From Escherichia coli O127:H6 str. E2348/69 (GTDB lineage Bacteria > Pseudomonadota > Gammaproteobacteria > Enterobacterales > Enterobacteriaceae): a stretch of 64,000 nt of DNA. The notes beneath the pieces are model-generated. The model saw only the letters and a list, made by a program, of their open reading frames with translations. It was not told where the DNA came from and ran no database searches. The position numbers and the translations under genes were made by a program. Position 1 is the first letter of the stretch, and each line of letters begins with the position of its first letter. Positions 13,707-44,655 of this stretch are shown here, piece by piece. The DNA lies in the NCBI RefSeq assembly GCF_000026545.1, contig NC_011601.1. One strand, written 5' to 3'.

Positions 13707-13793
13707 TATTAGCCAACTCCAATATTTTGATAATACGAAATAAAGACATAGAAAATACTAGATTATTTTTTAGCAAACCCAAGATTATAAAAT

Positions 13794-20324: not shown

Positions 20325-21441
20325 CCAGACCACCCGTTATGATATCCGCCGCTTTTTCTGGCAGACTGTATAAATCTTGTGTATCAGCATAATGTCGCGC
20401 ATTTTCCGCCCAGGCCTGGCGCAATGAAAATTGCGTTAACGCTTTGCGTAAAATCTCATTCAATGTTTCCTGGCGGAATGGCTCAGCAATAGCCTCGCCG
20501 CAATTGGCGTCGACAATATAATGCGCATAGCCACAAACGGCTGTTGTTAGTACCGGTAATCCTGCAGTAATCGCTTCCAGCAGCACAATTCCCGCCGCTT
20601 CCTGGTAGGCAGGATGCAGTAATAAATCCGCCGCCGCCATTAATTCCGAGACATCGTTGCGCCCCGAGAAGAAGTGAACATTACTGCGCACGCCGCGTTT
20701 TTCTGCCAGCGCCTCAAATTTTCGCGGTTTATCCTGCCCAACAACATATAGTAATGTGTTGTGGCGCAGCGAATCCGGTAACGAAGCAAGTGCTTCAATG
20801 GAACGATCGACACCTTTACGCGTGAAGTCTGAACCGACCTGCAACAATAAATATTGTTGTTCGGTTATTCCATTCTTCTTACGGAAGATTTCACGGCTAT
20901 TCGCTGGTTGCTGGCTATATTTACGATCAGGATAAATCCCCGGAGGCAGAATATGAAAACGCTCCGCTTCAGTCTGATAATGTTTCTGGAAATCGGCGAT
21001 TTGCTTATCTGTCAGCATCAGCAGCTGTGCCGGCTTGCCCTGTTCGAAGGTTGCCCGCTCAAAGGCGGCATAATGGCGATAACGTGACGTCAGGCGATAG
21101 AAAAAGCCTTTCTCCTGCGCTACTTTCTCGGCATAACAAACATCAGCGGCATAATAAACGTCCAGCCCCGGCATTTTATTAAATCCAACGACTCTATCGA
21201 CGGGGTGTTCACGTAAATGTTTTTGCACCCAGGCAAAATATTCCGCATTGCGCCCGTGATTGGTATGCGATTTAACCGGCACTTTGATCAGTTCAAATAC
21301 ATCAGGGCATTCGCCTTCCCACGACTGGGTATAAACCCGAACATGATGACCTCGGGCGGCGACTGTCTGAGCAATACGCATAAAATCGCGCTGCAAACCG
21401 CCAAAGGGAAAATATTTATATAAACAAAAAGCAACGATCAT
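20317..21441 (-). CDS. waaG: LPS glucosyltransferase I WaaG
   Basis: 374-aa GT4 ORF; recognised WaaG. Confidence 0.95.
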
Positions 21442-25619: not shown

Positions 25620-25790
<171 letters not shown>

Positions 25791-27100: not shown

Positions 27101-28321
27101 ATGAGCCTGGCCGGTAAAAAAATCGTTCTCGGCGTTAGCGGCGGTATTGCTGCCTATAAAACCCCTGAACTGGTGCGTCGTTTGCGCGATCGCGGGGCCG
27201 ATGTCCGCGTAGCCATGACCGAAGCGGCAAAAGCCTTTATCACCCCACTTAGCTTGCAGGCGGTTTCTGGTTATCCCGTTTCCGACAGTCTGCTGGACCC
27301 GGCAGCCGAAGCCGCTATGGGCCATATTGAGCTGGGAAAATGGGCTGATTTAGTGATTCTCGCCCCTGCCACGGCAGATTTAATTGCCCGTGTTGCAGCC
27401 GGAATGGCGAATGACCTGGTATCGACGATTTGTCTGGCTACACCTGCGCCTGTAGCCGTGCTCCCCGCCATGAACCAGCAGATGTACCGTGCCGCTGCCA
27501 CGCAGCATAATTTAGAGGTGCTTGCCTCGCGTGGTTTGCTCATCTGGGGGCCAGACAGCGGCAGTCAGGCTTGTGGTGATATCGGCCCAGGGCGAATGCT
27601 CGATCCGTTAACCATTGTGGATATGGCGGTAGCGCATTTTTCGCCCGTCAACGACCTGAAACATCTGAACATTATGATTACCGCCGGTCCGACGCGTGAA
27701 CCGCTCGATCCCGTGCGTTATATCTCTAATCACAGCTCCGGCAAGATGGGTTTTGCTATCGCCGCCGCCGCAGCCCGTCGTGGCGCGAACGTCACGCTGG
27801 TATCAGGTCCGGTTTCACTACCGACGCCACCGTTTGTTAACCGTGTTGATGTGATGACCGCGCTGGAAATGGAAGCCGCCGTGAATGCTTCTGTACAGCA
27901 GCAAAATATTTTTATCGGTTGCGCCGCCGTGGCGGATTATCGCGCAGCTACCGTGGCCCCAGAAAAAATCAAAAAGCAGGCCACGCAGGGTGATGAATTA
28001 ACAATAAAAATGGTTAAAAACCCCGATATCGTCGCAGGCGTTGCCGCACTAAAAGACCATCGACCCTACGTCGTTGGATTTGCCGCCGAAACAAATAATG
28101 TGGAAGAATACGCCCGGCAAAAACGTATCCGTAAAAACCTTGATCTGATCTGCGCGAACGATGTTTCCCAGCCAACTCAAGGATTTAACAGCGACAACAA
28201 CGCATTACACCTTTTCTGGCAGGACGGAGATAAAGTCTTACCGCTTGAGCGCAAAGAGCTCCTTGGCCAATTATTACTCGACGAGATCGTGACCCGTTAT
28301 GATGAAAAAAATCGACGTTAA
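27101..28321 (+). CDS. dfp: Bifunctional phosphopantothenoylcysteine decarboxylase / synthetase
   Basis: ORF 27029..28321 trimmed to ATG 27101 ([20 protein letters not shown]), 406 aa. Confidence 0.95.
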
Positions 28322-29503: not shown

Positions 29504-30463
29504 TTACCATACCACCAGCATTCGCTTTACACCCTCCCTCGCCTGTTTAAAACCCTCATCCTCAGGATTGATTTGCAATAACCAGTTTATTCTTCCCTGC
29601 AAAGCATAAAGATACGCCGTTGCCTGTGCATGAAGATCGCCAGAAGAATCAAGCTCACCACGACGACTAAGATGCGAAATGACGCCATATTTTTGGCACA
29701 AATGTACTTCCTGACGCAGTGCCCTCCGCACTTCGCGGGCGAGTTGTGGTTTGTGATTAACAACAATCCCGGTTACTTGCTGGCGCTTACAGGCCGCGAC
29801 CAGGCAGCTTTTGCGTTGATTGAGGTTCAGGCCCAGCTCCGCTAACAATCCGCACACTTTATTTTTAACCAGGCGGGCATTGAAGTGACCGGAAAAGGTC
29901 ATGTCATCGCAGTAGCGGGTGTAGGTAATTCCCCGAGCCTGACACCATTCCCCTATGCGCTCATCAAAACGGCACATCACAAGATTGGAAATGGCAGGCG
30001 AAGTTGGTGCCCCCTGCGGTAACGCGTCGTTATAGCAACAAAGCCAGGTCAGCATGCTTACCACATTGCGTGGCAACTGGGCCTGGCGAAACACACGCCA
30101 GACCTGTAACCAGCTAATGCTATCGAAAAAGTTTTCGATATCGAGTTTCAGGATCTGCGGCTGTTGGCAGTGAGGCTGCGCATTGCTGACGATTGGGCAA
30201 CCCGGCCGGTAGGCGGTAGCAAAAGGGGAAAGAGGGAATTGTGAAAGGACGTTCTTAAGAATGTTGCGCTGTACGGTTTTGAGCAAGTAATTAGGGGCTA
30301 ACACCACCCGCTGACCGCCGTGACGCTTAGAAAGAATAATCCGTCGGTAATGGCGTGCGGCATGATTACTGAGCGCATACAGCCGCTGTATTTCTTTATC
30401 GGCGCTCCAGCCCGGCGAGCCGAACAAATCAAGCGCCAGAAGGGTTATCCGGGTAGCATCCAT
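29504..30463 (-). CDS. Retron-type reverse transcriptase
   Basis: 319 aa from ATG (ORF track gives 323 aa from an upstream GTG); RT motifs YCDDMTFSG (YxDD) and QGAPTSPAISNL; retron-typical VTG motif (QVTGIVVN); between slmA and pyrE, where K-12 has only a short intergenic palindrome. Confidence 0.85.
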   Translation of the reverse strand: MDATRITLLALDLFGSPGWSADKEIQRLYALSNHAARHYRRIILSKRHGGQRVVLAPNYLLKTVQRNILKNVLSQFPLSPFATAYRPGCPIVSNAQPHCQQPQILKLDIENFFDSISWLQVWRVFRQAQLPRNVVSMLTWLCCYNDALPQGAPTSPAISNLVMCRFDERIGEWCQARGITYTRYCDDMTFSGHFNARLVKNKVCGLLAELGLNLNQRKSCLVAACKRQQVTGIVVNHKPQLAREVRRALRQEVHLCQKYGVISHLSRRGELDSSGDLHAQATAYLYALQGRINWLLQINPEDEGFKQAREGVKRMLVVW

Positions 30464-30469
30464 TCCACT

Positions 30470-30755
30470 CTCCACATCACGGCGACCAAAAGAGGCACCA
30501 ACAGCGGCAATACCCTCAAACTATCCCGAAGGCGCGTAACTGTACTGAGCGCGTCAGCGCGACGTACGCGAAGCGTACTTAAGTACAATGGAGCGACTTT
30601 GGGTATCTGGACAAACTACTGGCGTTAAGTCGGCGACTCGCCGACCCTCCCGGCACAAAAGGCCGGAAACGCTATTGCCACTGCTGGCGAAAGCAGATTA
30701 ACACGATATCTTAAACCGCATCACGCTGCGCACAGTAAAAACCTGCGCAGCGCAT
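30470..30755 (-). ncRNA. Putative retron msr/msd template RNA (boundaries approximate)
   Basis: ~290 bp non-coding region directly upstream of the RT on the same strand, dense in perfect hairpins/palindromes (GTACGCGAAGCGTAC, GTCGGCGACTCGCCGAC, CGCTGCGCA...TGCGCAGCG). Confidence 0.5.
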
Positions 30756-32309: not shown

Positions 32310-33173
32310 ATGATCCGCAGTATGACCGCCTACGCCCGGCGTGAAATCAAGGGTGAATGGGGGAGCGCAACCTGGGAAATGCGCTCGGTAAACCAGCGTT
32401 ATCTGGAAACTTACTTTCGTCTGCCGGAGCAGTTCCGTAGCCTTGAACCTGTCGTTCGTGAGCGTATTCGTTCTCGCCTGACGCGCGGTAAAGTGGAATG
32501 TACCCTGCGCTATGAGCCCGATGTCAGCGCGCAAGGTGAGCTGATCCTCAACGAAAAACTGGCTAAACAGCTGGTAACTGCCGCGAACTGGGTAAAAATG
32601 CAGAGTGACGAAGGGGAAATCAACCCGGTTGATATTCTCCGCTGGCCAGGCGTGATGGCGGCCCAGGAACAGGATCTCGACGCGATTGCCGCTGAAATTC
32701 TCGCGGCGCTGGATGGTACGCTGGACGACTTTATCATCGCGCGCGAAACCGAAGGTCAGGCGCTGAAAGCATTGATCGAGCAGCGTCTGGAAGGCGTGAC
32801 CGCCGAAGTGGTCAAAGTCCGCGCCCACATGCCGGAAATCCTGCAATGGCAGCGTGAGCGTCTGGTGGCTAAGCTGGAAGACGCCCAGGTGCAACTGGAA
32901 AACAACCGTCTGGAGCAGGAGTTGGTTCTGCTGGCACAACGAATTGACGTTGCCGAAGAGTTGGACCGCCTCGAAGCGCATGTTAAAGAGACCTACAACA
33001 TTCTGAAGAAAAAAGAAGCCGTTGGTCGTCGTCTGGACTTTATGATGCAGGAGTTCAACCGCGAGTCGAACACCCTGGCCTCGAAGTCTATCAATGCCGA
33101 AGTGACTAACTCCGCCATTGAGCTGAAAGTGTTGATCGAGCAGATGCGCGAGCAGATTCAGAATATTGAATGA
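32310..33173 (+). CDS. yicC: YicC family stress-induced protein
   Basis: 287-aa ORF; synteny with rph. Confidence 0.9.
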   Translation: MIRSMTAYARREIKGEWGSATWEMRSVNQRYLETYFRLPEQFRSLEPVVRERIRSRLTRGKVECTLRYEPDVSAQGELILNEKLAKQLVTAANWVKMQSDEGEINPVDILRWPGVMAAQEQDLDAIAAEILAALDGTLDDFIIARETEGQALKALIEQRLEGVTAEVVKVRAHMPEILQWQRERLVAKLEDAQVQLENNRLEQELVLLAQRIDVAEELDRLEAHVKETYNILKKKEAVGRRLDFMMQEFNRESNTLASKSINAEVTNSAIELKVLIEQMREQIQNIE

Positions 33174-33212
33174 TTTTGCATGCTGTCGCATGAAATTGCA
33201 AAAATCCATCAT

Positions 33213-33237
33213 AGCCCGCATTTTGCGGGCTTTTTTA
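33213..33237 (+). terminator. Intrinsic terminator of yicC
   Basis: Hairpin AGCCCGC-ATTTT-GCGGGCT followed by a T-run, 40 nt past the yicC stop. Confidence 0.65.
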
Positions 33238-33281
33238 TTTTCATACTGTCGCATATGATTGCATAGCATCGCGCAAAACAT

Positions 33282-33300
33282 TTGTACCCAAGACTGTACC
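33282..33300. repeat. attL core (left copy of the 19-bp direct repeat)
   Basis: TTGTACCCAAGACTGTACC, identical to 44406..44424; 61 bp upstream of the integrase start. Confidence 0.75.
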
Positions 33301-33360
33301 TTTAATAATTTATCCAATTCATTTTGGGTACAAAATGATAGTCAATATTCAGGTGAAACT

Positions 33361-34620
33361 ATGGCAAAGCTGACAGATATCCAAATCAAGTCATGGATTA
33401 AGGCAGGAGAACGCTTCGAGGGGCGCTCTGACGGCAACGGGCTATACCTTCGCTATCGAGTGGGGGATAAAGTGCCTGTATGGCGTTTTCGATATCAGTT
33501 CGCTGGGAAATCACGGGTAATGCTTATTGGATCTTATAGCGAAATATCCCTTTCCAAAGCACGGGAAATAGCCAAGGAATTATCCGCACGTGTAGCCCTG
33601 GGCTTCGATGTCGCCGGGGAAAAGAAAGCGCGAAAAGCGGCTGCTATAGAAAAGATGGAGCGGGAGAAAAACGCGCTTCGCGTGTCAGAGCTAGCAACCG
33701 AGTATTTCGAACGGCAGATTTTGGGACGCTGGAAACATCCCGATCTTCTGCGCCGGAGAATCGATAAGGATATCAACCCACATATTGGCAACATGAAGAT
33801 AGAGGACGTAAAACCCCGTCATATTGATGCGATGCTACAGAGCGTTGTTGATCGTGGCGCTCCAACCGTAGCTAATGACGTTCTGCGCTGGACTAAACGC
33901 ATATTCGATTATGCTATCAAGCGTCATGCACTGGAATTAAACCCAGCTGGAGCATTTGATCTGTCAGACGCTGGCGGGCAGGAAAGTAGCCGTATGCGCT
34001 GGCTGACCCGTGAAGAACTTATACGTTTTTTCCAAGCTATGCGCACTGCAAAAGGATTCAGCCGCGAGAACGAGCTGACCATGAAGCTAATCCTCTGCCT
34101 GTGTTGTCGCAAAATGGAGCTGTGCGGTGCTCAGTGGGATGAATTCGACCTTGATGAAGCAGTGTGGCATCTACCAGCAGAACGCGTTAAAAACGGCGAC
34201 GCTATTGATATACCACTACCTCCACCTGCGGTTGGTTGGTTGAGAGAGCTTCGCACTATCGCGGGCAGTGGGAGTAAATGGGTTCTCCCCGCGCGGAAGA
34301 TGCAACACCGCATGATTCCCCACATTCAGGAAAGCACACTCCCAGTGGCGCTGGCAAAAGTACGCCGCGAAATGCCAGAAGTACCAAACTTCACAATTCA
34401 CGATTTCAGGCGTACCGCCCGCACCCATTTAGCGGCGTTGGGTGTCGATCCCGTAGTCGCAGAACGTTGCCTGAATCACCGCATTAAAGGCGTTGAGGGT
34501 ATCTACAACCGCCACCAGTACTTTGAAGAACGACGGGCAGCCCTGGAACTGTGGGCGGGGCTTCTGGTTTCGCTTGAACGAGGGGAAAACTACAATGTTA
34601 TTCCTTTATCTAAAATATAA
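33361..34620 (+). CDS. int: Tyrosine-type site-specific integrase (P4-like)
   Basis: ORF 33259..34620 trimmed to MAKLTDIQIKSW (419 aa); catalytic region HDFRRTARTHL and C-terminal Tyr region (GIYNRHQY). Confidence 0.9.
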   Translation: MAKLTDIQIKSWIKAGERFEGRSDGNGLYLRYRVGDKVPVWRFRYQFAGKSRVMLIGSYSEISLSKAREIAKELSARVALGFDVAGEKKARKAAAIEKMEREKNALRVSELATEYFERQILGRWKHPDLLRRRIDKDINPHIGNMKIEDVKPRHIDAMLQSVVDRGAPTVANDVLRWTKRIFDYAIKRHALELNPAGAFDLSDAGGQESSRMRWLTREELIRFFQAMRTAKGFSRENELTMKLILCLCCRKMELCGAQWDEFDLDEAVWHLPAERVKNGDAIDIPLPPPAVGWLRELRTIAGSGSKWVLPARKMQHRMIPHIQESTLPVALAKVRREMPEVPNFTIHDFRRTARTHLAALGVDPVVAERCLNHRIKGVEGIYNRHQYFEERRAALELWAGLLVSLERGENYNVIPLSKI

Positions 34621-34636
34621 AAGTTTTGTTTGAAGG

Positions 34637-34739
34637 TATTCACCCTATTCACCTTTTTAATTAACTTCATGATTTTAAATAATAAAAAAGGGTGAATACT
34701 TACAGTAAAACTAATCACCTTAGTATTCACCTGTTCACC
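34637..34739. repeat. Cluster of five TATTCACC/TGTTCACC 8-mers (putative recombinase arm-type or regulator sites)
   Basis: TATTCACC at 34637, 34646 and 34724; TGTTCACC at 34732; inverted copy GGTGAATA at 34691; directly downstream of int. Confidence 0.5.
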
Positions 34740-34817
34740 TTCTAAAGCTGCTGTGGCTGCTCCCCTTGCCCGAAAACACGCCAGCCACCAGCGTTAAAAA
34801 AAACTACAAAAATCATC

Positions 34818-34839
34818 ATCGTACAGATCTGTACGATGA
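34818..34839. promoter_or_regulatory. Perfect 22-bp palindrome, putative operator
   Basis: CATCGTACAGATCTGTACGATG in the non-coding region between int and the cargo operon. Confidence 0.4.
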
Positions 34840-35123
34840 CGCCAGCACTCACCCTACAAAACAACCTAACTTATTGATTTCAAAAGTAGAGAAAATCTGC
34901 TTTATGCCACTAGCTCGCACCCGTCCCCAAAAAGAAAAAGCCCGCGCTGGAGACGCACGGGCTTTTGGGTACCGATAACCATGTTTGGAATCAACTCATT
35001 GAGTTCTGACCTCAATTTGCATGTTATCACAAGAAAAACACATTGTAATAATTGCAACAACGAATATCATCATTGCATATAATGAAACATAAATATCCGA
35101 TAGAACATACTGAGGTCTGACCG

Positions 35124-35675
35124 ATGCAAGATATTACAAACATCGCAGTGACTGGCGAAGATGGCGTGGTGACGTATGCCGACGGCAGTAAAGAGGAGTT
35201 CCAGTGCAGCGGAACCGTTGCGACCATCATTGCAAGTCTTGCAACGACACTCGAGAAAGAACGCAAAATGCGCATCGCCACCGGCGACCGCCTGCGCCGC
35301 ATGTACACCCGCGACAGTGATATGATTTCCCGCGGTTTGAATGGCACGTCTGCTACTTCCACGGCACCGACAGCAATGAATGCTGAGTTCATGCGTCTGG
35401 TACGTGCCGTAGCGCCGAAATACGATTCAGCACTGCCCGACGCCGACCCGCGCATCGTTGCGCTCGATGTGCTGCGCTACGCCCCTGCTGAGGCGTTCAG
35501 CGCCGTACACCCTACCCCAATGTCAGAAATCCAGCTGGATCAGGCTATCGATATACTCGAGCAGGTTGGCGACTACATGAAAGCAAACAATATCGCTCCG
35601 AAAATAATTTCTACAGGAGACGCAATCCGCAGCATCAATGCTGACAACGCCACCTTCTGGGGCAAAAAACACTAA
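35124..35675 (+). CDS. Hypothetical protein (island cargo, operon gene 1)
   Basis: 183-aa ORF with no recognised domain; first of four co-directional, tightly spaced ORFs. Confidence 0.6.
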   Translation: MQDITNIAVTGEDGVVTYADGSKEEFQCSGTVATIIASLATTLEKERKMRIATGDRLRRMYTRDSDMISRGLNGTSATSTAPTAMNAEFMRLVRAVAPKYDSALPDADPRIVALDVLRYAPAEAFSAVHPTPMSEIQLDQAIDILEQVGDYMKANNIAPKIISTGDAIRSINADNATFWGKKH

Positions 35676-35688
35676 AGAGATATGAAGC

Positions 35689-35877
35689 ATGTCTATCTAT
35701 GACCCGAAATTAGCCGCAGGCAACCCACAGCGCGCCCACCGCCCAATGCTGACCCGTCAGGATCTTGAAACGGCAAAGGCACGCAATAACTTCGATCGCC
35801 AGAGTCGCAACCTGCAGCAACTCAACGAATCAAATGCACGGTTCTGGAGTGAACAGAATGAGAAAGCCAAACGTTAA
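35689..35877 (+). CDS. Hypothetical small protein (operon gene 2)
   Basis: 62-aa ORF 14 bp after gene 1. Confidence 0.45.
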   Translation: MSIYDPKLAAGNPQRAHRPMLTRQDLETAKARNNFDRQSRNLQQLNESNARFWSEQNEKAKR

Positions 35878-36034
35878 GCCGGTCCTGCTGTCCGCCGAGC
35901 AGATGCAGGCCATACGCAACATTCAGGAACGTGAACGCCAGCGCTCCAATCTCGGCGTCGCTCCCACCGTTCACCAGATTGCCCGCGGCCTCATGGCTAA
36001 GGCTCTGGCCTCACTGGCAAGCGAGGGCGCGTAA
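35858..36034 (+). CDS. Hypothetical small protein (operon gene 3; start uncertain)
   Basis: ORF track gives 35765..36034; trimmed to ATG 35858, which has GGAG 9 nt upstream; stop overlaps the next start (TAATG). Confidence 0.35.
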   Translation: MRKPNVKPVLLSAEQMQAIRNIQERERQRSNLGVAPTVHQIARGLMAKALASLASEGA

Positions 36035-36765
36035 TGGGCGCCATTCACCAGATATATGAGCAGGAAATGTTCTATAACTGGATAGGCGATGGTAAACGAT
36101 GTGTAGCATTCCACGAAGCGGGCCATGCAGTAGCCGCATGGCTTATTCGCTTAGATATGCAGGTTATCGCCATTATGGATGAATCCGGCTACGTTGCTGG
36201 CGAACATGTACATGAAGCCCAGTGTTTGGGCGTTGTTAAACACGGCATAATCCACAGCCACGATCTCAGGCGTTTGCGGGAGAGTAAATCTGGTGTAGTT
36301 GGGCACGATGGCAAAGTTATCCCTTTCATACGCTACTACGCGGAAGGTATAAAGCGCGATGCAACAAAGGCCGCTTTTGTAGCCCTCGCTGGACCAGTAA
36401 GCGAAGCCATTTACGAAAATAACGAAATTTTCAATATAAAGTATTCACTCCCTCACCGCTATGACATGGCTAACGTAAATGACATGCTCGATTTAATATG
36501 TGCCACGGATAAGCGAATTAACAGGAAGTTAATGCTTTCTAAACTTGTTGAAAAGACCAAATTCCTCATGACTCAATACTGGCCGGAAGTAGGAAAAATA
36601 GCGCATTTGCTTGAGCGGGATAACATTGTTAATGGCCGCGATGTTAGCTCGCTAATCGGCCTCAACGTCATTGACCGGGCAACGCCATTTTTGGTATCTG
36701 ACTTGAGCAGTACATTTGCTCATCTCCCGTACTCGTCCCTGCCTCCGAATGAATTAGCAACTTGA
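36034..36765 (+). CDS. FtsH-like (M41-type) zinc metallopeptidase-domain protein lacking ATPase and membrane modules
   Basis: 243 aa; HEAGH zinc-binding motif (AFHEAGHAVAAW) and downstream LAGPVSEAIY segment resembling the FtsH protease domain; no Walker motifs. Confidence 0.65.
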   Translation: MGAIHQIYEQEMFYNWIGDGKRCVAFHEAGHAVAAWLIRLDMQVIAIMDESGYVAGEHVHEAQCLGVVKHGIIHSHDLRRLRESKSGVVGHDGKVIPFIRYYAEGIKRDATKAAFVALAGPVSEAIYENNEIFNIKYSLPHRYDMANVNDMLDLICATDKRINRKLMLSKLVEKTKFLMTQYWPEVGKIAHLLERDNIVNGRDVSSLIGLNVIDRATPFLVSDLSSTFAHLPYSSLPPNELAT

Positions 36766-36776
36766 AGACAGTAAAG

Positions 36777-36803
36777 TAGCCATGCATTTAACACGCATGG
36801 CTA
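36777..36803. terminator. Hairpin between convergent cargo operons (putative bidirectional terminator)
   Basis: 9-bp perfect stem TAGCCATGC / GCATGGCTA with a 9-nt loop, between the stops at 36765 (+) and 36813 (-). Confidence 0.45.
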
Positions 36804-36812
36804 TGTGAACAT

Positions 36813-38036
36813 TTAAGAATTAGAGCGCTTAGGCGATCGCGTAAATTGCACTAAAGCCCCTTTATGATCGTTAGCCTGCACATCACGATGCTCAACCAAC
36901 ATAGATTTTAATTTTGCCAGATGCACAACAGCAGCCTTCTTGCCAGTCAGGTACCCCTCGGGCAAACCAGCAATCATTTCCACATCAATAGCAGATAAAC
37001 CTGCGAATGCAGCAAGCCGTTCAACTGAAATGATTCCAGACGATGCCAGCAATTCAATAGTACGTTTCAACAAACGTGGTTTTTCAGGCTCACGATAATC
37101 ATCTCCCGGCTCTGATTTCGCTCCCCAACGTGCTGAACGACGCTTATAAAGATTTTGTTTCTCTTCTTCCGTAATAATATGCAGCACATGTAAACGCATG
37201 ATACTTGCCGCAACGGAAATACCATAGCGTTGTTTAATTAAAAGCAAGCTATCTAATGTTACCGGGGTCCTAATTTCTTCGGCAAATGTCTCAGCAGGAA
37301 GCAGCAGTGCTCCCGCAAATTTATGAGCCTGACTTTCCTTCAGCTTATAACGTTCGGCTTCGAGTTCGTTGCCAACATAGCGGTGAAGGATCAGATGACC
37401 AATTTCGTGAGCAAGGTCAAATCTGCTACGAAAAGCATTACCTTTATCTGAAGAGAGGAGAACAAAAGGAACACCTAAAGTCTCACTCCAGGCAGAAAGC
37501 CCTTCAATCTGCGCAACGCCTGTTTCTTCTCTAATAACGATAATACCATTACTCTCTGCGGCTAAAGCAAGATCCGGTATTTCCTTTGTACCAAGATTCC
37601 AAAGAGCACGGCACTCATTAGCAGCGTCTTCAATATCTGCATCACTAATTTCATCAATGTTTGTAAAGCTACGACGCGGTAGTTTTAGCTCCGGCAGATC
37701 TACAAACTCAGTCAGCTTAGTAACTAACTCATTAGCCCAATGGATTCGAGTTTCTAACATTGCTCGTGCAGCTACATGAGCTGATGCATTGCTTCTGAAC
37801 AGAGGCTTTGACATCCCCTTCAACAGAGGGCGCGTAAACCATTCAGGTGTAACATTTACGACAGTGGCCAGACGTTCTAAAGCCTCAGACTCTGGAGCCT
37901 GTTGACCGGAACGCCATTTGCTAATGGTTGCTGGTGATACACCCACCATAGTAGCTAATTGAGTTTGTGATAGCCGCCGGGCGGCTAGTACCTGTGCTAA
38001 CCTGCCCGGTTGAAATTCGGCGACGCCTCGGCTCAT
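36813..38036 (-). CDS. Fused HTH-XRE / ImmA-IrrE-type (M78-like) zinc metallopeptidase protein
   Basis: 407 aa; N-terminal XRE helix-turn-helix (LSQTQLATMVGVSPATISKWRSG); central HExxH motif (LAHEIGHLILH); start overlaps the upstream gene stop by 4 bp. Confidence 0.8.
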   Translation of the reverse strand: MSRGVAEFQPGRLAQVLAARRLSQTQLATMVGVSPATISKWRSGQQAPESEALERLATVVNVTPEWFTRPLLKGMSKPLFRSNASAHVAARAMLETRIHWANELVTKLTEFVDLPELKLPRRSFTNIDEISDADIEDAANECRALWNLGTKEIPDLALAAESNGIIVIREETGVAQIEGLSAWSETLGVPFVLLSSDKGNAFRSRFDLAHEIGHLILHRYVGNELEAERYKLKESQAHKFAGALLLPAETFAEEIRTPVTLDSLLLIKQRYGISVAASIMRLHVLHIITEEEKQNLYKRRSARWGAKSEPGDDYREPEKPRLLKRTIELLASSGIISVERLAAFAGLSAIDVEMIAGLPEGYLTGKKAAVVHLAKLKSMLVEHRDVQANDHKGALVQFTRSPKRSNS

Positions 38037-38680
38037 ACATTATCTTCCTCGGTTCCATCTTTTCTGATAATGCCCCTTTTGAGCCCAGGGAATGCATTAT
38101 CTTCTTGGGACGGAACTACATCATATCGGGTTAAAAAAAGTTCAAGTGGCTCATGAAAAACCCAGCGCTTCCCATCAGAACTTGGTACAACAAGCTCTAT
38201 AGACATCGGAGCTTCAGGCTGAATCTGCAACGAACCGGAAAAACGGCATACTACGAACAGTGTAGCTTTTGGCACATCAGAACCATCGGAGAATAAATCC
38301 GGTTGCACCATTTTTTCCACAAACACGTTCTCAGAAATGAGTTCTTGCTTACGTTTGCTACGGAATAATCTCTTCCACTGGTTATCATTGTAGCTTTCAC
38401 GAACAATCGTGAATATACCACTATGGCCTTCTACAATACGGTTACCACGCAGCTTTCCAGGATTACAACCGTTGGCCTCAAACACCTCATAAATAGTTTC
38501 ATTCAGGTTTAAATGACGATCATAACCAAGCGCGGTCGATCTGTGATCTAGCTTCTTCTTTTGAGCATAATCGTAAGAACGCTTTGATGCCGCGTAAATC
38601 GCGTCAGAAAGGGCCATGAAGAGTTGTTTTGAAACATTCTGAACGATGAGATCTGCCACTTTGGATTTTTTCACGACCAT
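38033..38680 (-). CDS. Hypothetical protein, co-operonic with the HTH-peptidase gene
   Basis: 215-aa ORF; AGGAA just upstream of the ATG; no recognised domain. Confidence 0.65.
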   Translation of the reverse strand: MVVKKSKVADLIVQNVSKQLFMALSDAIYAASKRSYDYAQKKKLDHRSTALGYDRHLNLNETIYEVFEANGCNPGKLRGNRIVEGHSGIFTIVRESYNDNQWKRLFRSKRKQELISENVFVEKMVQPDLFSDGSDVPKATLFVVCRFSGSLQIQPEAPMSIELVVPSSDGKRWVFHEPLELFLTRYDVVPSQEDNAFPGLKRGIIRKDGTEEDNV

Positions 38681-39209
38681 TTCCTATCACTGTCACTGAT
38701 AGCCGTGATTTTATATCAGTATTTTTTCGTGTGTCCATAACGCAATCAATTATTTTTTCCTTTGTCAGCAAGAATTATATAAAAAGCACTATCATGACAG
38801 GATTTGGGCCACTAACCTTTCACAGACTCTTGAAGTCCTAGAAAAAAGCAATGGCACAAGGTGTCCTTGCCGGGAGAAAAATCATCTGGCTACCAGCAAC
38901 CTTATAGATTCCAGATCAACGTAATATCAAAGTAAAACGTCCATTTCCGGTACCATATTTGGTCATTACGACGGGGGAAACTTATACCCACTGCTGCCCC
39001 ATCGTCAGCGCCGACAGGGACCTATGCCGCAAGGTATAAGGCAAAATTGGCATTTTCGCTATTCCCCCTGCCCGTATTTTTTGGCTTACTGGAATTTCTC
39101 TATCTAACACAATGAACTTGAGGCTATTCCGACAGGGAGAAAAGCGATCTACGCCTGACCGCCTGCCTCAGCAATCATCCAGGCAAGTACGTGTGTAAGG
39201 CTAACGCGA

Positions 39210-39890
39210 ATGAGTGATTTTTATTCCCCTCTACCAAGCTATGATCTTGTCCGGGCAGCGGAGATGCTGACTGATAAGGGGGCAAATTGTACCGGTAACG
39301 ATTTATTGGAACTATGGAACCAAGGCGTTATCGAGTTGTGTTTTTCTCTGCCGGACTACATTGCTTGTGAAGATGTTAATTTTCCCGGGCATGGTCACAG
39401 CATTTTGTTATCCGTGGATCCGATTAGCTTCAACCTTTTCTGGCTAAATGTTGATTACCCACCGAACTTAAATGCTAACTTTTCTGTGAAAGAATATGGC
39501 TCAGATAGTGAATTCCATGAGCAGTCCCTATGGATACCAACAGAACCGCACTACAACACTCACCATGATAACGGGGAAGGGCTTTGCGAAGCGTTAAGGA
39601 ATACTTATGGCCGGGAAAATTTACGAATACCAGGTGTCGAATTGCAAAAGGTTTGGCGCTTTTTGATCGGTCAGCCTTATGAAAAAAAGCCAACGCCTGA
39701 GCGTATCACCGCTAAGCAATGCCGCTTTATCGTCGCATTACTCAGATCGTATAACCTGACTGACGATGATTTTAAGGGGAGCATTAGGGACCTGAGAATT
39801 AAGATATCTAACCGGATCCCTTCAATCGGTGATCCTGAAATCGATGATAATACCCTTACTGACTGGCTGAAGAAGGGAGGGGTTCGGTAG
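39210..39890 (+). CDS. Hypothetical protein (island cargo, orphan)
   Basis: 226-aa ORF with no recognised domain; divergent from the 38680 operon. Confidence 0.6.
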   Translation: MSDFYSPLPSYDLVRAAEMLTDKGANCTGNDLLELWNQGVIELCFSLPDYIACEDVNFPGHGHSILLSVDPISFNLFWLNVDYPPNLNANFSVKEYGSDSEFHEQSLWIPTEPHYNTHHDNGEGLCEALRNTYGRENLRIPGVELQKVWRFLIGQPYEKKPTPERITAKQCRFIVALLRSYNLTDDDFKGSIRDLRIKISNRIPSIGDPEIDDNTLTDWLKKGGVR

Positions 39891-39992
39891 CTGAGTTTTC
39901 ATAACTCCGATGAGTTTTCAATAACTCCCCCACCCGTAACCACCTACCCCGTAGCCTTGCGATTACCTTCTCACTCAATAGCAGGTAATCGC

Positions 39993-40205
39993 ATGAAATC
40001 GCAAACTTTCACCTTTCCTACCAATGGCAACGCACGAGCCAAACAAGTGGCGCACTATCTTGGAGTGCATATCAGCACCGTATGGCGCTATGCAAAACGT
40101 CCTGATTTTCCAAAACCCCACCAGTTAACCGACGGCGTGACCGTCTTTGACGCCGCAGCTATTCGCCAATGGAACAAGCAAAAAACCGGGGGTGAGAATG
40201 CTTAA
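39993..40205 (+). CDS. alpA: AlpA-family phage transcriptional regulator / excisionase-like protein
   Basis: ORF 39957..40205 trimmed to MKSQTFTF (70 aa); HTH segment AKQVAHYLGVHISTVWRYAKRPDFPKP typical of AlpA/Vis. Confidence 0.7.
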   Translation: MKSQTFTFPTNGNARAKQVAHYLGVHISTVWRYAKRPDFPKPHQLTDGVTVFDAAAIRQWNKQKTGGENA

Positions 40206-40259
40206 CGCGACCGTGAGCACACCCTGCACGACAGCCGTTCGATCTCCATTGTTGGCGGG

Positions 40260-40454
40260 TCAGGCTTTCGGCTCAATACCCAGCCGCTGGAGTTCTTTGC
40301 GCCCCAAGGTTTTCATCCAATTAGCTAAACTCATACCTGCATCTCGTGCGGCGGCCTCGAATTGCTCTTTCAATTCTGGGGCGATCCTCACTTGGAAAGC
40401 TGGTGCCTTTCCCCTGCCTTTGGGCTGTTTATCACGCTGTATTACTGTTGACAT
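40260..40454 (-). CDS. Putative ribbon-helix-helix DNA-binding protein
   Basis: ORF 40260..40547 trimmed to MSTVIQRD (64 aa); beta-strand plus two-helix pattern (FQVRIAPELKEQFEAAARDAGMSLANWM). Confidence 0.45.
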   Translation of the reverse strand: MSTVIQRDKQPKGRGKAPAFQVRIAPELKEQFEAAARDAGMSLANWMKTLGRKELQRLGIEPKA

Positions 40455-40588
40455 GTATGTACCTATTAAACTAAGATTCAAATCAATAGGTACGCACCTT
40501 AACATGTTAAGGTCAGAAAAGACAACGCCCCGTAGTGCTCGCAACACATACGGGGCGTCTAACCAACAACGTTACGGAGACTAACGCT

Positions 40589-40789
40589 ATGGCTAAGCCG
40601 CAGTGTACCCAAACTCACCCCAAATATCAGTATCGTTTTATGGCGCTCGATCGCGCTGACCGCCAGGCAAAACCCTGCAAAATCATTGTTGAGGCCACCA
40701 GCGAGCATGAAGCACGTAAGGTGTTGGCACCTCACTACATCCTGTCACTGTCCGCCGTTTTGCCAGTTCAGGAGGTGAGCCATGTTTAA
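40589..40789 (+). CDS. Hypothetical protein (replication-module operon)
   Basis: ORF 40535..40789 trimmed to ATG 40589, which follows GGAGA; 66 aa. Confidence 0.4.
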   Translation: MAKPQCTQTHPKYQYRFMALDRADRQAKPCKIIVEATSEHEARKVLAPHYILSLSAVLPVQEVSHV

Positions 40790-40976
40790 TGTCATTGTCA
40801 CGGTCACCTATCACTTTTCGGGAACGATCCGTCGTTTTGCTATTCCGGAACGTTTCAATAATCGTGAGCTCGCAGAGAAAGCGGCGCAGCAGTTAACCCA
40901 TACCAGCTATCTGGATGATGGAGTGAGCAGAATTGTGACCCACGCGGCGGAAGTAGTGGAGGTGCGCCATGTATGA
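40782..40976 (+). CDS. Hypothetical protein (replication-module operon)
   Basis: 64-aa ORF whose start overlaps the upstream stop. Confidence 0.4.
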   Translation: MFNVIVTVTYHFSGTIRRFAIPERFNNRELAEKAAQQLTHTSYLDDGVSRIVTHAAEVVEVRHV

Positions 40977-41157
40977 CGCCTACCTGAACCCAAAGGACGC
41001 ACTCCGTCCGATCGCCGTTGCACTCGAGGCTGCGCAGTTTATCGCGCTTGACCCGGAGAATACCGATTTAGCCCATGAGCTGATCGCCTGGGCACTTGAA
41101 ACAGCCGCGCGTGCCTCAGCTGCGCAACGTAACACCCCGGAGGTGGACAATGCTTAA
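40969..41157 (+). CDS. Hypothetical protein (replication-module operon)
   Basis: 62-aa ORF whose start overlaps the upstream stop. Confidence 0.4.
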   Translation: MYDAYLNPKDALRPIAVALEAAQFIALDPENTDLAHELIAWALETAARASAAQRNTPEVDNA

Positions 41158-41458
41158 TCTCAATACATGGAATCTTTTCACGCTGCCGCTGAACGGTGGC
41201 GCAGCTGAGACAGCGCCGGACGATCTGCGTCTGCTGGCCGCTGTGGGGGACGAGGCTCGCAACAACTACCTGCGCGGTGTAAGCGCCATCGGCAATCTGA
41301 TCTTCTGGGCATGTGATAACCCCAACTACACCGACCATCAAGCTGACCTGCCAGCGCTGGGCGCATTCCTGAAACATACCGCTGATATGGCGCGCGCTGC
41401 CGAATTCATGGCAGGACATCTGGACTCACTGGCTGACGGCAAAGAGGGAGGCAAATAA
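41150..41458 (+). CDS. Hypothetical protein (replication-module operon)
   Basis: ORF 41096..41458 trimmed to ATG 41150, which follows GGAGGTGG; 102 aa. Confidence 0.45.
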   Translation: MLNLNTWNLFTLPLNGGAAETAPDDLRLLAAVGDEARNNYLRGVSAIGNLIFWACDNPNYTDHQADLPALGAFLKHTADMARAAEFMAGHLDSLADGKEGGK

Positions 41459-41679
41459 TGCCACGCAAACATCGCTCATCAAGCAACCTGATCAAATTAA
41501 TGGAACGCCAGAAAGGTATAGGGCGCGACGATATCCAGATCGCAGATAATCGCCCTACATTCATGCCGTACGAGCCGAACGGAACCTACGCTACAAACCG
41601 CCATACCCGCCGTATGCTACGCAAGCTCCACGGCATCCAGGCAAAAAGAATGTGTGATCTGAAAGGAGGTCAGAAATGA
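41458..41679 (+). CDS. Hypothetical protein (replication-module operon)
   Basis: 73-aa ORF; stop overlaps the primase start. Confidence 0.45.
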   Translation: MPRKHRSSSNLIKLMERQKGIGRDDIQIADNRPTFMPYEPNGTYATNRHTRRMLRKLHGIQAKRMCDLKGGQK

Positions 41680-44090
41680 GTGGATTCGATCACCTGATGG
41701 AGCAGGGGCAGAAACGCACCCCTGCTCGTTTTACTGCAAATAGCTTTTCTGACCTGTGCAACGCTATTCTATCGCATCGTGTGCAAATTTCCATCACACA
41801 GGAAATGACGGATGAAGAACGGCGCAAAGAAAAGCAGAAACTGTACTGGTTCTCGGCAACTACCCAGCAGGACGGGCAGCGACGTAAACCCGAAAACATG
41901 GCACCGTGTGCTTTCGGTATGCTGGACATTGACGGCAGCACTCCCGGTGCAATCACAGCACTTGTACAGGTGTTCCGGCGATACTCAATGCTGGTGTACC
42001 AGACGGCCAGCTATACGACGGATGAACCTCGTCTGCGTATTGTGTGCGAGCTTTCCCGAGCGGTTGAATCTGACTACCGCCGAGCGACAGGCGAATCCAT
42101 AGAAACTTTGTTGATGCAGGAGGCTGGATTCTCATTCGCCAGCCTGGCGGATAAGAAAGCACGCTGGGAGAACGGCAGCGATTATGTTGTCTTTGACCGC
42201 AATGTATACGGCGCTCAAAGCTATTGCTACTGTCCACACACTGGAGCGAAAGCCCAGAATTACGCGGGCGCGGTAATCGACGTAGGGGCGTTACCGGAAC
42301 CCGCCCAGCCACCAGCGAAGGCGGCCAAAAGCAAGGCAAAGAAACAGCGCCAGCGTGACGCCGCGGCGGTAATAGATGCTGATTTTGACGATCTGAGCGC
42401 CGGACCGGATAACTTCCTTATCGCCGACCTGCGCAGCGCACTCTGGTTTCCCTCCATGCTGCAAAAGGCATGGGACAATGGGGCGTGGATTGAGCAGGGC
42501 TACCGCCTTGCATCTCTCAAAGGCACCGATTTTGAGGACGACGCGCGGCAACTGTGGGTCGAGTGGTCATTGACCGCAGCGGATGGCTGGCCTGATGAAG
42601 AACTTGATGAAGTCGCGGCACAACGCTGGAATGGTCTCGCCCCTGACAAAACCAGCTATAAAGCTATTTTTACTGATGCTCAGGCGCAGGGGTGGAATAA
42701 TCCGGGCAAATGGCGAGCAAAGGCCGCGTACATTGAGAAAATGGCCCCCAGCACACGCGGTGAACTGCTGGCGCAATATTACGGCAACGTATGCCTGAAA
42801 GCTGATGGCAACATGGTTTATCACTATACCGGGCAGGTGTGGGAGCACATCGCCGATGCCGAGTTGCGCCGCCAGCTTTCGCAGATTTTCAAAGATAACG
42901 GGGTCCCCTTTACACCGTACGAGGTTAAAAGCGCGATTGAGGCTATGGGAATGCTTCTGCCTTTAATGGGAGAAACTCCTCGTAACCTGATTGGCTTTGC
43001 CAACGGCGTTTATGATCTCGAGGCGCAGCGATTCCGCCCCCACTGCCCAGACGATTGGCTGACCAGCCATAACGGCGTTGAATACACGCAGCCGGTTAAA
43101 GGCGAAACCCTGAAAAACAATGCCCCAAACTTCTGGCGCTGGCTGCATCATTCCGCAGGGGGCGACTTCGACAAAATGGAGAGAATCAAAGCCGCTCTGT
43201 ATATGGTGCTGGCAAACCGCTACGACTGGCAACTGTTCATCGAGGTTACCGGTGCTGGTGGCAGTGGTAAAAGCGTGTTCACGGGTATTGCACGTATGCT
43301 GACGGGCGAACTACACGCCACCAGCGGCACAATGGAGGACATGGACACCGCGCGCGAACGCGCATCTTTTGTCGGCAAAAGCCTGATCACCCTACCCGAC
43401 CAAGCAACATATACGGGTTCCGGGCCGGGTATCAAGGCTATAACGGGCGGCGACGTGGTAAGGATCGACCCAAAGCACGAAAAGCCATTCCATACGGTTA
43501 TTCGCGCCGTTGTCATCGCAACAAACAACGAACCTATGCGTTTCACCGAACGACAAGGCGGGATATCGCGGCGCCGGGTTATTTTCCCGTTTAACCATGA
43601 AGTGCCGGAGGCGGAACGTGATCCCCATCTGCTCGATAAAATTAAAGCCGAACTGCCGGTAATCGTCCGTGGTCTGCTGATTGACTTCGAACAGCCAGGC
43701 AAAGCCAAATCGCTACTTATCGCGCAGCGTGATTCAGCGGAAGCGCTGCAGGTGAAGAACGATAACGACCCGATGTATGGCTTTTGCTCTTACCTGCTAG
43801 GTTTGCCGAATCCCGAGGGCATGTACATGGGCGATGGGCGCATGGCGCGAGAGCCACGCATCTACCTCTATCATGCTTATCTGGCCTATCTGGAAGCCTA
43901 CGGTTATCAGAGAACCCCCACCCTACCGAAGTTCAGCGGAGATTTACGGGACACGCTCAAAGCCTTTGGTATTACTCTGGACAGTAAAAAGAGTAAAAAG
44001 GGCAAAAGATATAACGTCAATTTGTCTGACAGGGCACAAGAATGGCTGGGAGAAGACGAACTCTCAGCTGTGCCCGACACATTGCAGTAA
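41676..44090 (+). CDS. P4 alpha-like primase-helicase
   Basis: 804 aa; Walker A GAGGSGKS in the C-terminal half (SF3/D5-type helicase); last gene of a translationally coupled operon. Confidence 0.85.
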   Translation: MSGFDHLMEQGQKRTPARFTANSFSDLCNAILSHRVQISITQEMTDEERRKEKQKLYWFSATTQQDGQRRKPENMAPCAFGMLDIDGSTPGAITALVQVFRRYSMLVYQTASYTTDEPRLRIVCELSRAVESDYRRATGESIETLLMQEAGFSFASLADKKARWENGSDYVVFDRNVYGAQSYCYCPHTGAKAQNYAGAVIDVGALPEPAQPPAKAAKSKAKKQRQRDAAAVIDADFDDLSAGPDNFLIADLRSALWFPSMLQKAWDNGAWIEQGYRLASLKGTDFEDDARQLWVEWSLTAADGWPDEELDEVAAQRWNGLAPDKTSYKAIFTDAQAQGWNNPGKWRAKAAYIEKMAPSTRGELLAQYYGNVCLKADGNMVYHYTGQVWEHIADAELRRQLSQIFKDNGVPFTPYEVKSAIEAMGMLLPLMGETPRNLIGFANGVYDLEAQRFRPHCPDDWLTSHNGVEYTQPVKGETLKNNAPNFWRWLHHSAGGDFDKMERIKAALYMVLANRYDWQLFIEVTGAGGSGKSVFTGIARMLTGELHATSGTMEDMDTARERASFVGKSLITLPDQATYTGSGPGIKAITGGDVVRIDPKHEKPFHTVIRAVVIATNNEPMRFTERQGGISRRRVIFPFNHEVPEAERDPHLLDKIKAELPVIVRGLLIDFEQPGKAKSLLIAQRDSAEALQVKNDNDPMYGFCSYLLGLPNPEGMYMGDGRMAREPRIYLYHAYLAYLEAYGYQRTPTLPKFSGDLRDTLKAFGITLDSKKSKKGKRYNVNLSDRAQEWLGEDELSAVPDTLQ

Positions 44091-44108
44091 CTTGTAAAAA
44101 ATCACCAA

Positions 44109-44133
44109 GAACCCCGTAAATCGGGGTTTTTGT
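44109..44133 (+). terminator. Intrinsic terminator after the primase gene
   Basis: Hairpin ACCCCG-TAAAT-CGGGGT followed by TTTTT, 20 nt past the stop. Confidence 0.6.
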
Positions 44134-44150
44134 CTATTTATTAGTCTGAA

Positions 44151-44255
44151 AGGGTGAACAGGTGCGCATACCTTAACAAAGCTGTTCACTCTAATAATTT
44201 TCTTTAATATCAGTACACTACCCGCAATAAGTGAACAGATGGACGGGGTGAACAC
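44151..44255. repeat. Cluster of GTGAACA motifs near the right island end
   Basis: GGTGAACA at 44153 and 44248, GTGAACAG at 44231, inverted copy TGTTCAC at 44183; related to the left-end TGTTCACC/TATTCACC cluster. Confidence 0.45.
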
Positions 44256-44405
44256 TTCACACCTATAGCGCGAAATATTTTAATATTTGCAGTTGAATTG
44301 CAATCCTTGAAAACAGAAACGCGTAGCAAAACGTAGAGTGCTGAAAAAATTTTGTTGGGGAGCAGTTCAAACTGCATGAGCAATTTTCAAGCACTCCTCT
44401 TTGTC

Positions 44406-44424
44406 TTGTACCCAAGACTGTACC
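44406..44424. repeat. attR core (right copy of the 19-bp direct repeat)
   Basis: TTGTACCCAAGACTGTACC, identical to 33282..33300. Confidence 0.75.
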
Positions 44425-44655
44425 CAATAGAAAAAATAGAAAATAAAAACTCAGCAATAGCAGCGATTGGTTACACTACTCAACATTCAGATTCAACTCG
44501 TAACGCCAATTCTTACTTTTCAGCCTTCACAAATGCCGCCCACTCAAACAGAGCGGCATTTTTCTTCCCCGCAACTTCAATTCTGTTTTGCGTGCCTGCT
44601 CCAGATTTTGCGATGTTTTTTTGCCCAGCGCAGTGAGAACGTGAGATACTCACAA

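Follow-up and report, generated by a model that had tools for sequence, protein, structure and literature searches.

Predicted arm-type integrase sites before the integrase gene of a yicC-inserted, P4-like island in Escherichia coli E2348/69

Arm-type sites of the lambda and P4 kind serve a bivalent integrase that bridges the arms and the core of an attachment site, and this bridging sets the geometry of the integrative versus the excisive complex. In P4, whose record (NC_001609) annotates 12-bp "attP arm sequence repeats" in the layout of Pierson and Kahn, the elements read in the direction of int are a repeat pair at 4174-4151, the core at 4097-4078, a second pair at 3965-3942 and an inverted copy at 3926-3915 that lies over the int start. 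P4 Int represses Pint by binding DNA near the start site, and Vis also lowers Int, while in KplE1 both IntS and TorI repress PintS through P′ arm sites, of which P′1 overlaps the -10 element (PMC2951348). Experiments on related islands have established that they attach at the 3′ end of yicC (PMC5704250, PMC8409611, PMC8978831). The elements reported to target it are Vibrio MGIs, Shewanella islands (with att sites sequenced after excision), SGI1-like elements and E. coli PICIs, and a preprint describes an unusual "attB drift" with non-overlapping identity blocks at yicC.

We analyzed a 64,000-nucleotide stretch of E. coli O127:H6 strain E2348/69 (contig NC_011601.1), here called the window, which contains what sequence comparison identifies as a P4-like element of ~11.3 kb in the last ~21 bp of yicC. 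With a probability of roughly 0.8, we interpret the arms of an inverted repeat just before its integrase gene as arm-type binding sites for the island's own integrase. The features on which this interpretation draws are as follows.

32310..33173, plus strand: yicC (YicC/YloC endoribonuclease); its last ~21 bp are the predicted attachment site, and the island supplies the codons to the right of the crossover
33154..33160, plus strand: candidate overlap region AGATTCA of attL, from junction comparison
33161..33171, plus strand: candidate core-type half-site C′, GAATATTGAAT, assigned by eye from junction alignments
33175..33263, plus strand: proximal P′ arm, island-borne and missing in K-12
33281..33292, plus strand: predicted arm-type site P′1, TTTGTACCCAAG, the left arm of the repeat; overlaps a weak candidate -35 element, TTGTAC
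33293..33304, plus strand: predicted arm-type site P′2, ACTGTACCTTTA, a direct copy 12 bp after P′1
33323..33334, minus strand: predicted inverted arm-type site P′3, reverse complement TTTGTACCCAAA, matching P′1 at 11/12 positions; the right arm of the repeat
33340..33352, plus strand: pre-Shine-Dalgarno element AGTCAATATTCAG, a copy of the candidate core-type half-site
33361..34620, plus strand: int, tyrosine integrase with N-terminal Arm-DNA-bind_3 (DUF4102) at residues 4-90
39993..40205, plus strand: AlpA/Vis-like small HTH protein, candidate recombination directionality factor (RDF)
44405..44428, plus strand: predicted far-arm tandem pair P1, CTTGTACCCAAG, and P2, ACTGTACCCAAT; second copy of the "19-bp core"
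44478..44495, plus strand: attR core, comprising candidate half-site C, ACTCAACATTC (44478-44488), and the candidate overlap AGATTCA (44489-44495)

The 11.1-kb segment between the two site pairs encodes the integrase, an AlpA-like HTH protein, an Icd-like protein and a P4-family primase. Its cargo includes a two-gene RmrA/RmrT-like pair at 36813-38680 on the minus strand (an RmrA-like protein of 407 aa with HTH_3 and Peptidase_M78 domains, and an RmrT-like protein of 215 aa), which is a toxin-antitoxin or defence-type module in the satellite's variable region. The ATG of the alpA-like gene is also the end point of a perfect 11-nt inverted repeat at 39958-39993, GCGATTACCT(N14)AGGTAATCGC, which could be an operator or an RBS-sequestering hairpin. 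The int stop is closely followed by another inverted repeat, GGTATTCACCC ... GGGTGAATACT (34636-34700), with a second TATTCACC copy alongside. Two near-matches to the arm-site motif, namely GTGTACCCAA at 40603-40612 in the Icd-like gene region (found in the same sequence context at related locus L029) and the inverted GTGTAACCAA at 44467-44476 beside the C half-site at attR (missing from L062), could be chance occurrences or additional weak sites. Elsewhere in the window, between slmA and pyrE, a gene on the minus strand at 29504-30475 encodes a reverse transcriptase that matches the PADLOC retron RT_Ec107-like model (E = 6.5e-131); it is strain-variable, being missing in L004 and L061, for example.

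Sequence of the repeat and position of the recombination core

The earlier note had described a 10-nt inverted repeat close to the int start, with an internal TGTACC direct repeat, and all of these are present: TTTGTACCCA at 33281-33290 faces TGGGTACAAA at 33325-33334, the TGTACC copies stand 12 bp apart (33283-33288 and 33295-33300), and the right arm ends 26 nt before the int ATG at 33361, upstream of which the Shine-Dalgarno sequence AGGTGA occupies 33351-33356. The exact 10-mer is confined to these two places in the 64 kb. Perfect complementarity reaches 11 nt (TTTGTACCCAA at 33281-33291 with TTGGGTACAAA at 33324-33334), so that the arms enclose 32 nt. In the window, 8 distinct places carry a perfect inverted repeat of 11 nt or more whose loop does not exceed 60 nt, against ~1.1 per dinucleotide shuffle, and a lone repeat of this length is therefore unremarkable; the case that it is not random comes from related loci, about 40 of which conserve the same position together with compensating changes. 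That the repeat is a chance product of AT-rich intergenic DNA, where about one perfect 11-nt inverted repeat (loop up to 60 nt) would be expected per shuffled 64 kb, is thus vanishingly improbable, given that its position and the compensating changes are kept across several orders.

A longer repeat had been assigned to the core itself. The 19-bp perfect direct repeat at 33282-33300 and 44406-44424 bounds the 11.1 kb containing int, and the earlier note placed the inverted repeat astride it as core-type integrase sites at attL. Such a core has in its favor a perfect repeat around an int-containing segment; the identity block at the yicC end is far shorter, at 8 bp. Yet K-12 lacks the 19-mer and ~200 bp around it, and the junction in the window lies ~120 bp further left, inside yicC; the attL core is therefore not straddled by the repeat. 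K-12 and strain EC42405 pass straight from the yicC stop into CTCGTAACG (CTCGTAACGCC, found in the window from 44497 on), and ~33172-44496 of the window is extra DNA relative to K-12; the 19-mer copies thus carry insert-specific flanks of ~110 bp on the left (33172-33281) and 72 bp on the right (44425-44496). The K-12 yicC-dinD spacer, in which the earlier note had proposed to look for an ancestral inverted copy, contains neither arm nor the 19-mer, and on this point the note stands. The empty site predicted from excision at the 19-mer has no match among ~5,424-5,426 complete E. coli genomes, the best matches to that query reaching 73% coverage in two pieces.

Other islands at the same position agree with a junction inside yicC. 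An integrase gene adjoins yicC in ~180 E. coli genomes (17 at >98% identity and ~163 at ~75%), and the three island types, whose integrases are 75-76% identical over aligned DNA, differ in the sequence that runs from the yicC stop to the site pair; the divergent islands at L004 and L005 have cargo entirely different from that of the window island. Since this flank varies with island type, it is island DNA. At L004, attR reads ...AAACATTCAGATTC-AACATCGAATAA|CTCGTAACG and retains the original K-12 yicC end (AACATCGAATAA|CTCG) 80-100 bp outside its site pair, while attL has a different, island-supplied yicC terminus (AACGTGGAATAA), which puts the crossover in the last ~21 bp of yicC. Spacing points the same way, as the arms of the inverted repeat are 32 bp apart where 6-8 bp is expected of core-type sites, the two copies within the 19-mer are direct rather than inverted, and each arm also carries the motif as a direct tandem pair; the equivalent pairs of P4 lie well away from its known tRNA core. 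A crossover core at the 19-bp repeat with core-type Int half-sites around it is accordingly very unlikely. What survives of the earlier proposal is that the sites are integrase-related and lie just upstream of int, with autoregulation of int as a plausible role; their assignment to the core type is excluded by spacing and position.

The identity block common to attL and attR of the window is the 8-bp CAGATTCA (33153-33160 and 44488-44495), and junction comparison favors AGATTCA within it (33154-33160 and 44489-44495) as the candidate overlap region. For the exact crossover base, CAGATTC(A) and the following AAYRTYG block were weighed; attR gaps of 2-15 bp follow AGATTCA. The flanking sequences, ACTCAACATTC (44478-44488) and GAATATTGAAT (33161-33171), form an imperfect 11-bp inverted repeat (9/11) around the 7-bp AGATTCA, and ACTCAACATTC-AGATTCA-GAATATTGAAT is a candidate core of canonical tyrosine-recombinase shape, from which we assign half-sites C and C′. 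On the arm-site model, attP would read ...ACTCAACATTCAGATTCAGAATATTGAATGATTTTGC..., and a tandem junction in Buttiauxella (L012), where another P′ arm comes after the same P-side core, amounts to an attP sequence. A free attP form gave no match in viral_contigs, which was scanned with the predicted attP core and with the 19-mer.

The attR cores that we examined equal the expected C-AGATTCA-B′ minus a gap that begins right after CAGATTCA. The gap is 2 bp in L004 (~27715-27745), 4 bp in L009 (~20735-20760), 7 bp in L061 (~25690-25705), 12 bp in the window (44488-44500) and in L062, and ~15 bp in L018 (12481-12500). As aligned, these gaps are not what simple conservative exchange predicts; their common left breakpoint suggests a link with the position of cleavage, and hence scars associated with Int cleavage. 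In the window, the 12-bp gap relative to the K-12 attB means that the B′ half is missing at attR, and the E2348/69 island may for that reason be excision-defective or locked in place. Two further loci hold remains of other insertions, with L012 showing an attR-type core and then another P′ arm without int (13546-13790), and L025 an attR-like pair and yicC-end copy only 2.2 kb after the int start (12150-12340). Successive islands appear to have left their remains at the yicC site.

Arm sites and integrase signatures across related loci

A search with the Int protein gave 54 loci, from Escherichia, Erwinia, Xenorhabdus and Aeromonas to Dechloromonas, Aromatoleum and Methylococcales. In 40 of them, int is preceded by a yicC homologue whose end lies 167-238 bp away (mostly 184-194 bp), which marks a yicC-specific integrase family. 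Nearly all of 41 loci share a common plan in the 110 bp before int, in which two direct sites 12 bp apart are followed after 15-30 bp by one or two inverted copies, with the ATG ~25-35 bp further on. An AGCGCA-containing conserved block also stands just upstream of P′1 in most relatives, and in the window a 26-nt direct repeat (33175-33200 and 33238-33263, 81% identical) flanks a terminator-like hairpin at 33213-33231; both the block and the direct repeat could be sites for accessory proteins such as IHF or an RDF.

The center of the arm site, GTAC, is invariant apart from a few loci with GTGCAC or GTAAC, and the variable 3′ part changes by lineage, always in the inverted copies too. Direct and inverted forms pair as GTACCCAA/TTGGGTAC, GTACACCT/AGGTGTAC, GTGCACCC/GGGTGCAC, GTACATA/TATGTAC, GTACTTA/TAAGTAC, GTACCAA/TTGGTAC and GTAACCA/TGGTTAC. 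Within a locus, the longest stretch shared exactly by direct and inverted copies is 10.1 nt on average, compared with 6.9 nt across loci and 5.3 nt in shuffles. Where the retrieved DNA reaches the far end of the island, a tandem pair of the matching type stands there, usually 60-85 bp before a yicC-end remnant; this was so in 14/35 loci against 2/35 controls. The scan took a wrong 22-mer in the window and in a few loci whose spacing is 11 or 13 bp, and those entries are uninformative. With the motif on both arms, the region becomes a five-site system in which the reported inverted repeat is P′1 against P′3, and the "19-bp core" is, as we read the alignment, the near-identity of P′1-P′2 to P1-P2.

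The island Int matches PF13356 (Arm-DNA-bind_3) at residues 4-90 (E = 5.7e-19), followed by central and catalytic domains, and its N-domain is related to the solved arm-binding domains of HPI/HAI7 (PDB 3JU0 and 3JTZ); the family is regarded as an arm-binding domain (PMC8138268). We aligned 38 integrases, including 36 with classified sites. Across these 36 proteins, residues 29-46, which we take to be the DNA-facing beta-hairpin, fall into classes that match the site classes with no exception. By residues 31/33/36, the classes are as follows.

R-R-D, within L-R-[YFH]-R-x-x-D: ...CCCA-type sites (...GTACCCA), 12/12 loci; the window Int (R31/R33/D36) belongs here, with site TTGTACCCAA
C-P-Y, within C-[FY]-P-x-x-Y-x-x-P-F: GTAC[AT]TA, 11/11 loci; the counterpart site is GTGTACATA
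[CS]-R-Y, within [SC]-Y-R-x-x-Y: ...ACCT, as GTACACCT or GTACCCCT
[CS]-R-[FM], within [SC]-Y-R-K-x-[FM]: ...CCAA, as GTACCAA

Site class does not simply follow phylogeny, because the window Int is 85% identical to those of L004, L008 and L010 outside the N-domain but only 39% identical in residues 29-46, with another site class, whereas against L034 the values are 64% and 78%, with the same site class. At least four separate clusters of integrases that are 80-88% identical in residues 100-419 hold two or three site classes. The region coding for the N-domain lies only ~30-150 bp from the P′ sites, and part of this co-variation could be linkage; the far-arm pairs, ~10 kb away, switch too, which argues against linkage as the whole explanation. 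As the far-arm pairs switch and the signature tracks the site class, we provisionally assign the sites to the Int N-domain.

The main competing candidate among the island's proteins is the AlpA/Vis-like excisionase, which would bind these sites in place of Int and control the direction of excision together with int expression. An AlpA-family gene is indeed present in the island, RDFs often bind tandem direct repeats, and P4 Vis and KplE1 TorI repress int expression (PMC2951348). The sites, however, lie on both arms and in both orientations rather than on one arm as expected for an RDF, they correspond to the annotated Int arm repeats of P4, and they track the Int N-domain signature through at least four independent switches; moreover, the 2.2-kb L025 remnant, which has int and no room for alpA, retains them. 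We consider binding by the excisionase unlikely.

Taking Int as the reader of the sites, residues 31/33/36 could constitute a recognition code for DUF4102 arm-binding domains, one repeatedly swapped among integrases that share the yicC target. Swapped arm specificity may keep islands that compete for, or are tandemly stacked at, one attB from excising each other. The comparative set amounts to a natural experiment on DUF4102 arm-site recognition, with four site classes, matching signatures and at least four switches.

The int leader and possible autoregulation

In the intasome model that we propose, the far-arm sites P1/P2 would lie ~50-60 bp from the core C-AGATTCA-C′, which in turn would be ~110-120 bp from P′1/P′2; 18 bp would then separate P′1/P′2 from the inverted P′3, and 26 bp P′3 from the int ATG. 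The Int N-terminal domain would bind the arm sites and the core-binding and catalytic domains the yicC core, and bridging of arms and core by Int would build both the integrative and the excisive intasome.

This layout bears on expression of int, which is transcribed away from attL. The yicC stop (33173), the hairpin at 33213-33231, predicted by a terminator scan now to end yicC transcription, and the int ATG (33361) are all on the plus strand. With int pointing away from attL and a terminator standing between it and yicC, the int promoter must be located in the P′ arm, within or beside the P′1-P′3 group. The scan found terminator-like sites only there (33213-33231, at attL) and at 44106-44132, near attR. 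A consensus scan of 33100-33500 gave no sigma-70 promoter, nor was one found at attR. The best candidate found by hand, TTGTAC at 33282-33287 and AATAAT at 33304-33309 with a 16-bp spacer, is weak (8/12 positions); it would put P′1 on the -35 element, P′2 in the spacer and P′3 at about +8 to +19. A relaxed hexamer search of 34 loci revealed no consistently placed promoter, a -10-like hexamer ending near -51 in 12 of the 34 and different candidates appearing in the others. The earlier placement of the repeat "in the int promoter" is thus plausible by position and unproven. With P′1-P′3 all in the last 80 bp before int, Int probably represses int when the island is integrated, and by analogy with P4 and KplE1 we lean slightly toward negative autoregulation.

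The repeat might instead work by base pairing, as an attenuator or terminator hairpin in the int-leader RNA or as a cruciform, with no part for protein sites. The RNA from 33276-33340 does fold at -15.9 kcal/mol (z = -3.4 against shuffles). Its 32-nt loop and the absence of a T-run after it, though, depart from the GC-rich stem, short loop and T-run of an intrinsic terminator, and pairing cannot account for the direct copies P′2, P1 and P2, nor for relatives in which the inverted copies number one or two at variable spacing. The left arm is probably upstream of any int transcription start, and read-through from yicC runs into the terminator at 33213-33231. A hairpin is accordingly extremely unlikely, and we retain the reading of the arms as Int sites.

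Five bp after P′3, immediately before and overlapping the int Shine-Dalgarno sequence, lies AGTCAATATTCAG (33340-33352), a half-site copy together with the first overlap bases. It matches the reverse complement of C′ at 10/11 positions and ACTCAACATTCAG (44478-44490) at 11/13, and no other leader block is as well conserved in the nine closest loci; more distant ones lack it. Pairing of the yicC 3′ end with the int leader RNA was considered as a source of this similarity; the pairing is lost in L004 and L022, and a shared protein-recognition consensus therefore fits better. The element may be an extra core-type Int site on the int RBS, and one Int might clamp P′3 through its N-domain and the AGTCAATATTCAG half-site through its core-binding domain, creating a bivalent operator. 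The natural code with specificity swapping and the bivalent operator on the int RBS are speculative readings, and we think them rather doubtful.

Comparison with known systems

Because the longest direct repeat is not the att core, island boundaries called from the longest terminal repeat are off by ~80-130 bp at both ends, and arm sites are then wrongly labelled as core; the island in fact ends at the yicC 3′ end on one side and in the DNA just before CTCGTAACG on the other. The useful products of this work are corrected island boundaries and comparative data on arm-site specificity.

Lambda Int, with its P1, P2 and P′1-P′3 sites (PMC2951348), resembles the island system in having a bivalent integrase with sites on both arms in mixed orientation, but the N-domain family and the site sequences are unrelated, and lambda int is not transcribed from within attL. 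KplE1 (CPS-53) is closer in that its int is transcribed away from attL with P′ sites upstream of the gene (PMC2951348); it differs in integrase clade, RDF family and target (argW), and its promoter and sites have been mapped experimentally, whereas those of the island are predicted. The yicC-specific elements MGIVflInd1, GISpuPO1 and IEEcoMOD1 and the E. coli yicC PICIs share the target and the placement of int beside attL, the two features on which the likeness rests in the parts of the sources consulted, and those parts contain no description of arm sites for the integrases of yicC-specific islands or PICIs. The "attB drift" reported in the preprint may relate to the long identity between arm pairs and to ragged attR cores.

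P4 provides the fullest match. The order of elements is the same, with gaps of 53, 112 and 15 bp in P4 and 49-60, 109-120 and 18 bp in the island, and both have an arm-binding N-domain, a tandem 12-bp pair in each arm and an inverted copy near the int start. The island also shares with the P4 family a primase, an Icd-like gene and an AlpA/Vis-like gene; a cursory look recognised none of the sid, psu and delta genes in it. Differences lie in the site sequence (TTGTACCCAA in the island versus TTGGGGGCAYA in P4), in the target (the 3′ end of the protein gene yicC versus a tRNA-Leu gene) and in the inverted copy, which as P′3 ends 26 bp before the ATG in the island and lies over the start in P4. 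Unlike those of P4, the two pairs of the island are nearly identical (19/19 nt) and so mimic an att core. Overall, the attachment region of the E2348/69 island is, as predicted from its sequence, an instance of the P4-type arm-site architecture, which is already well known.
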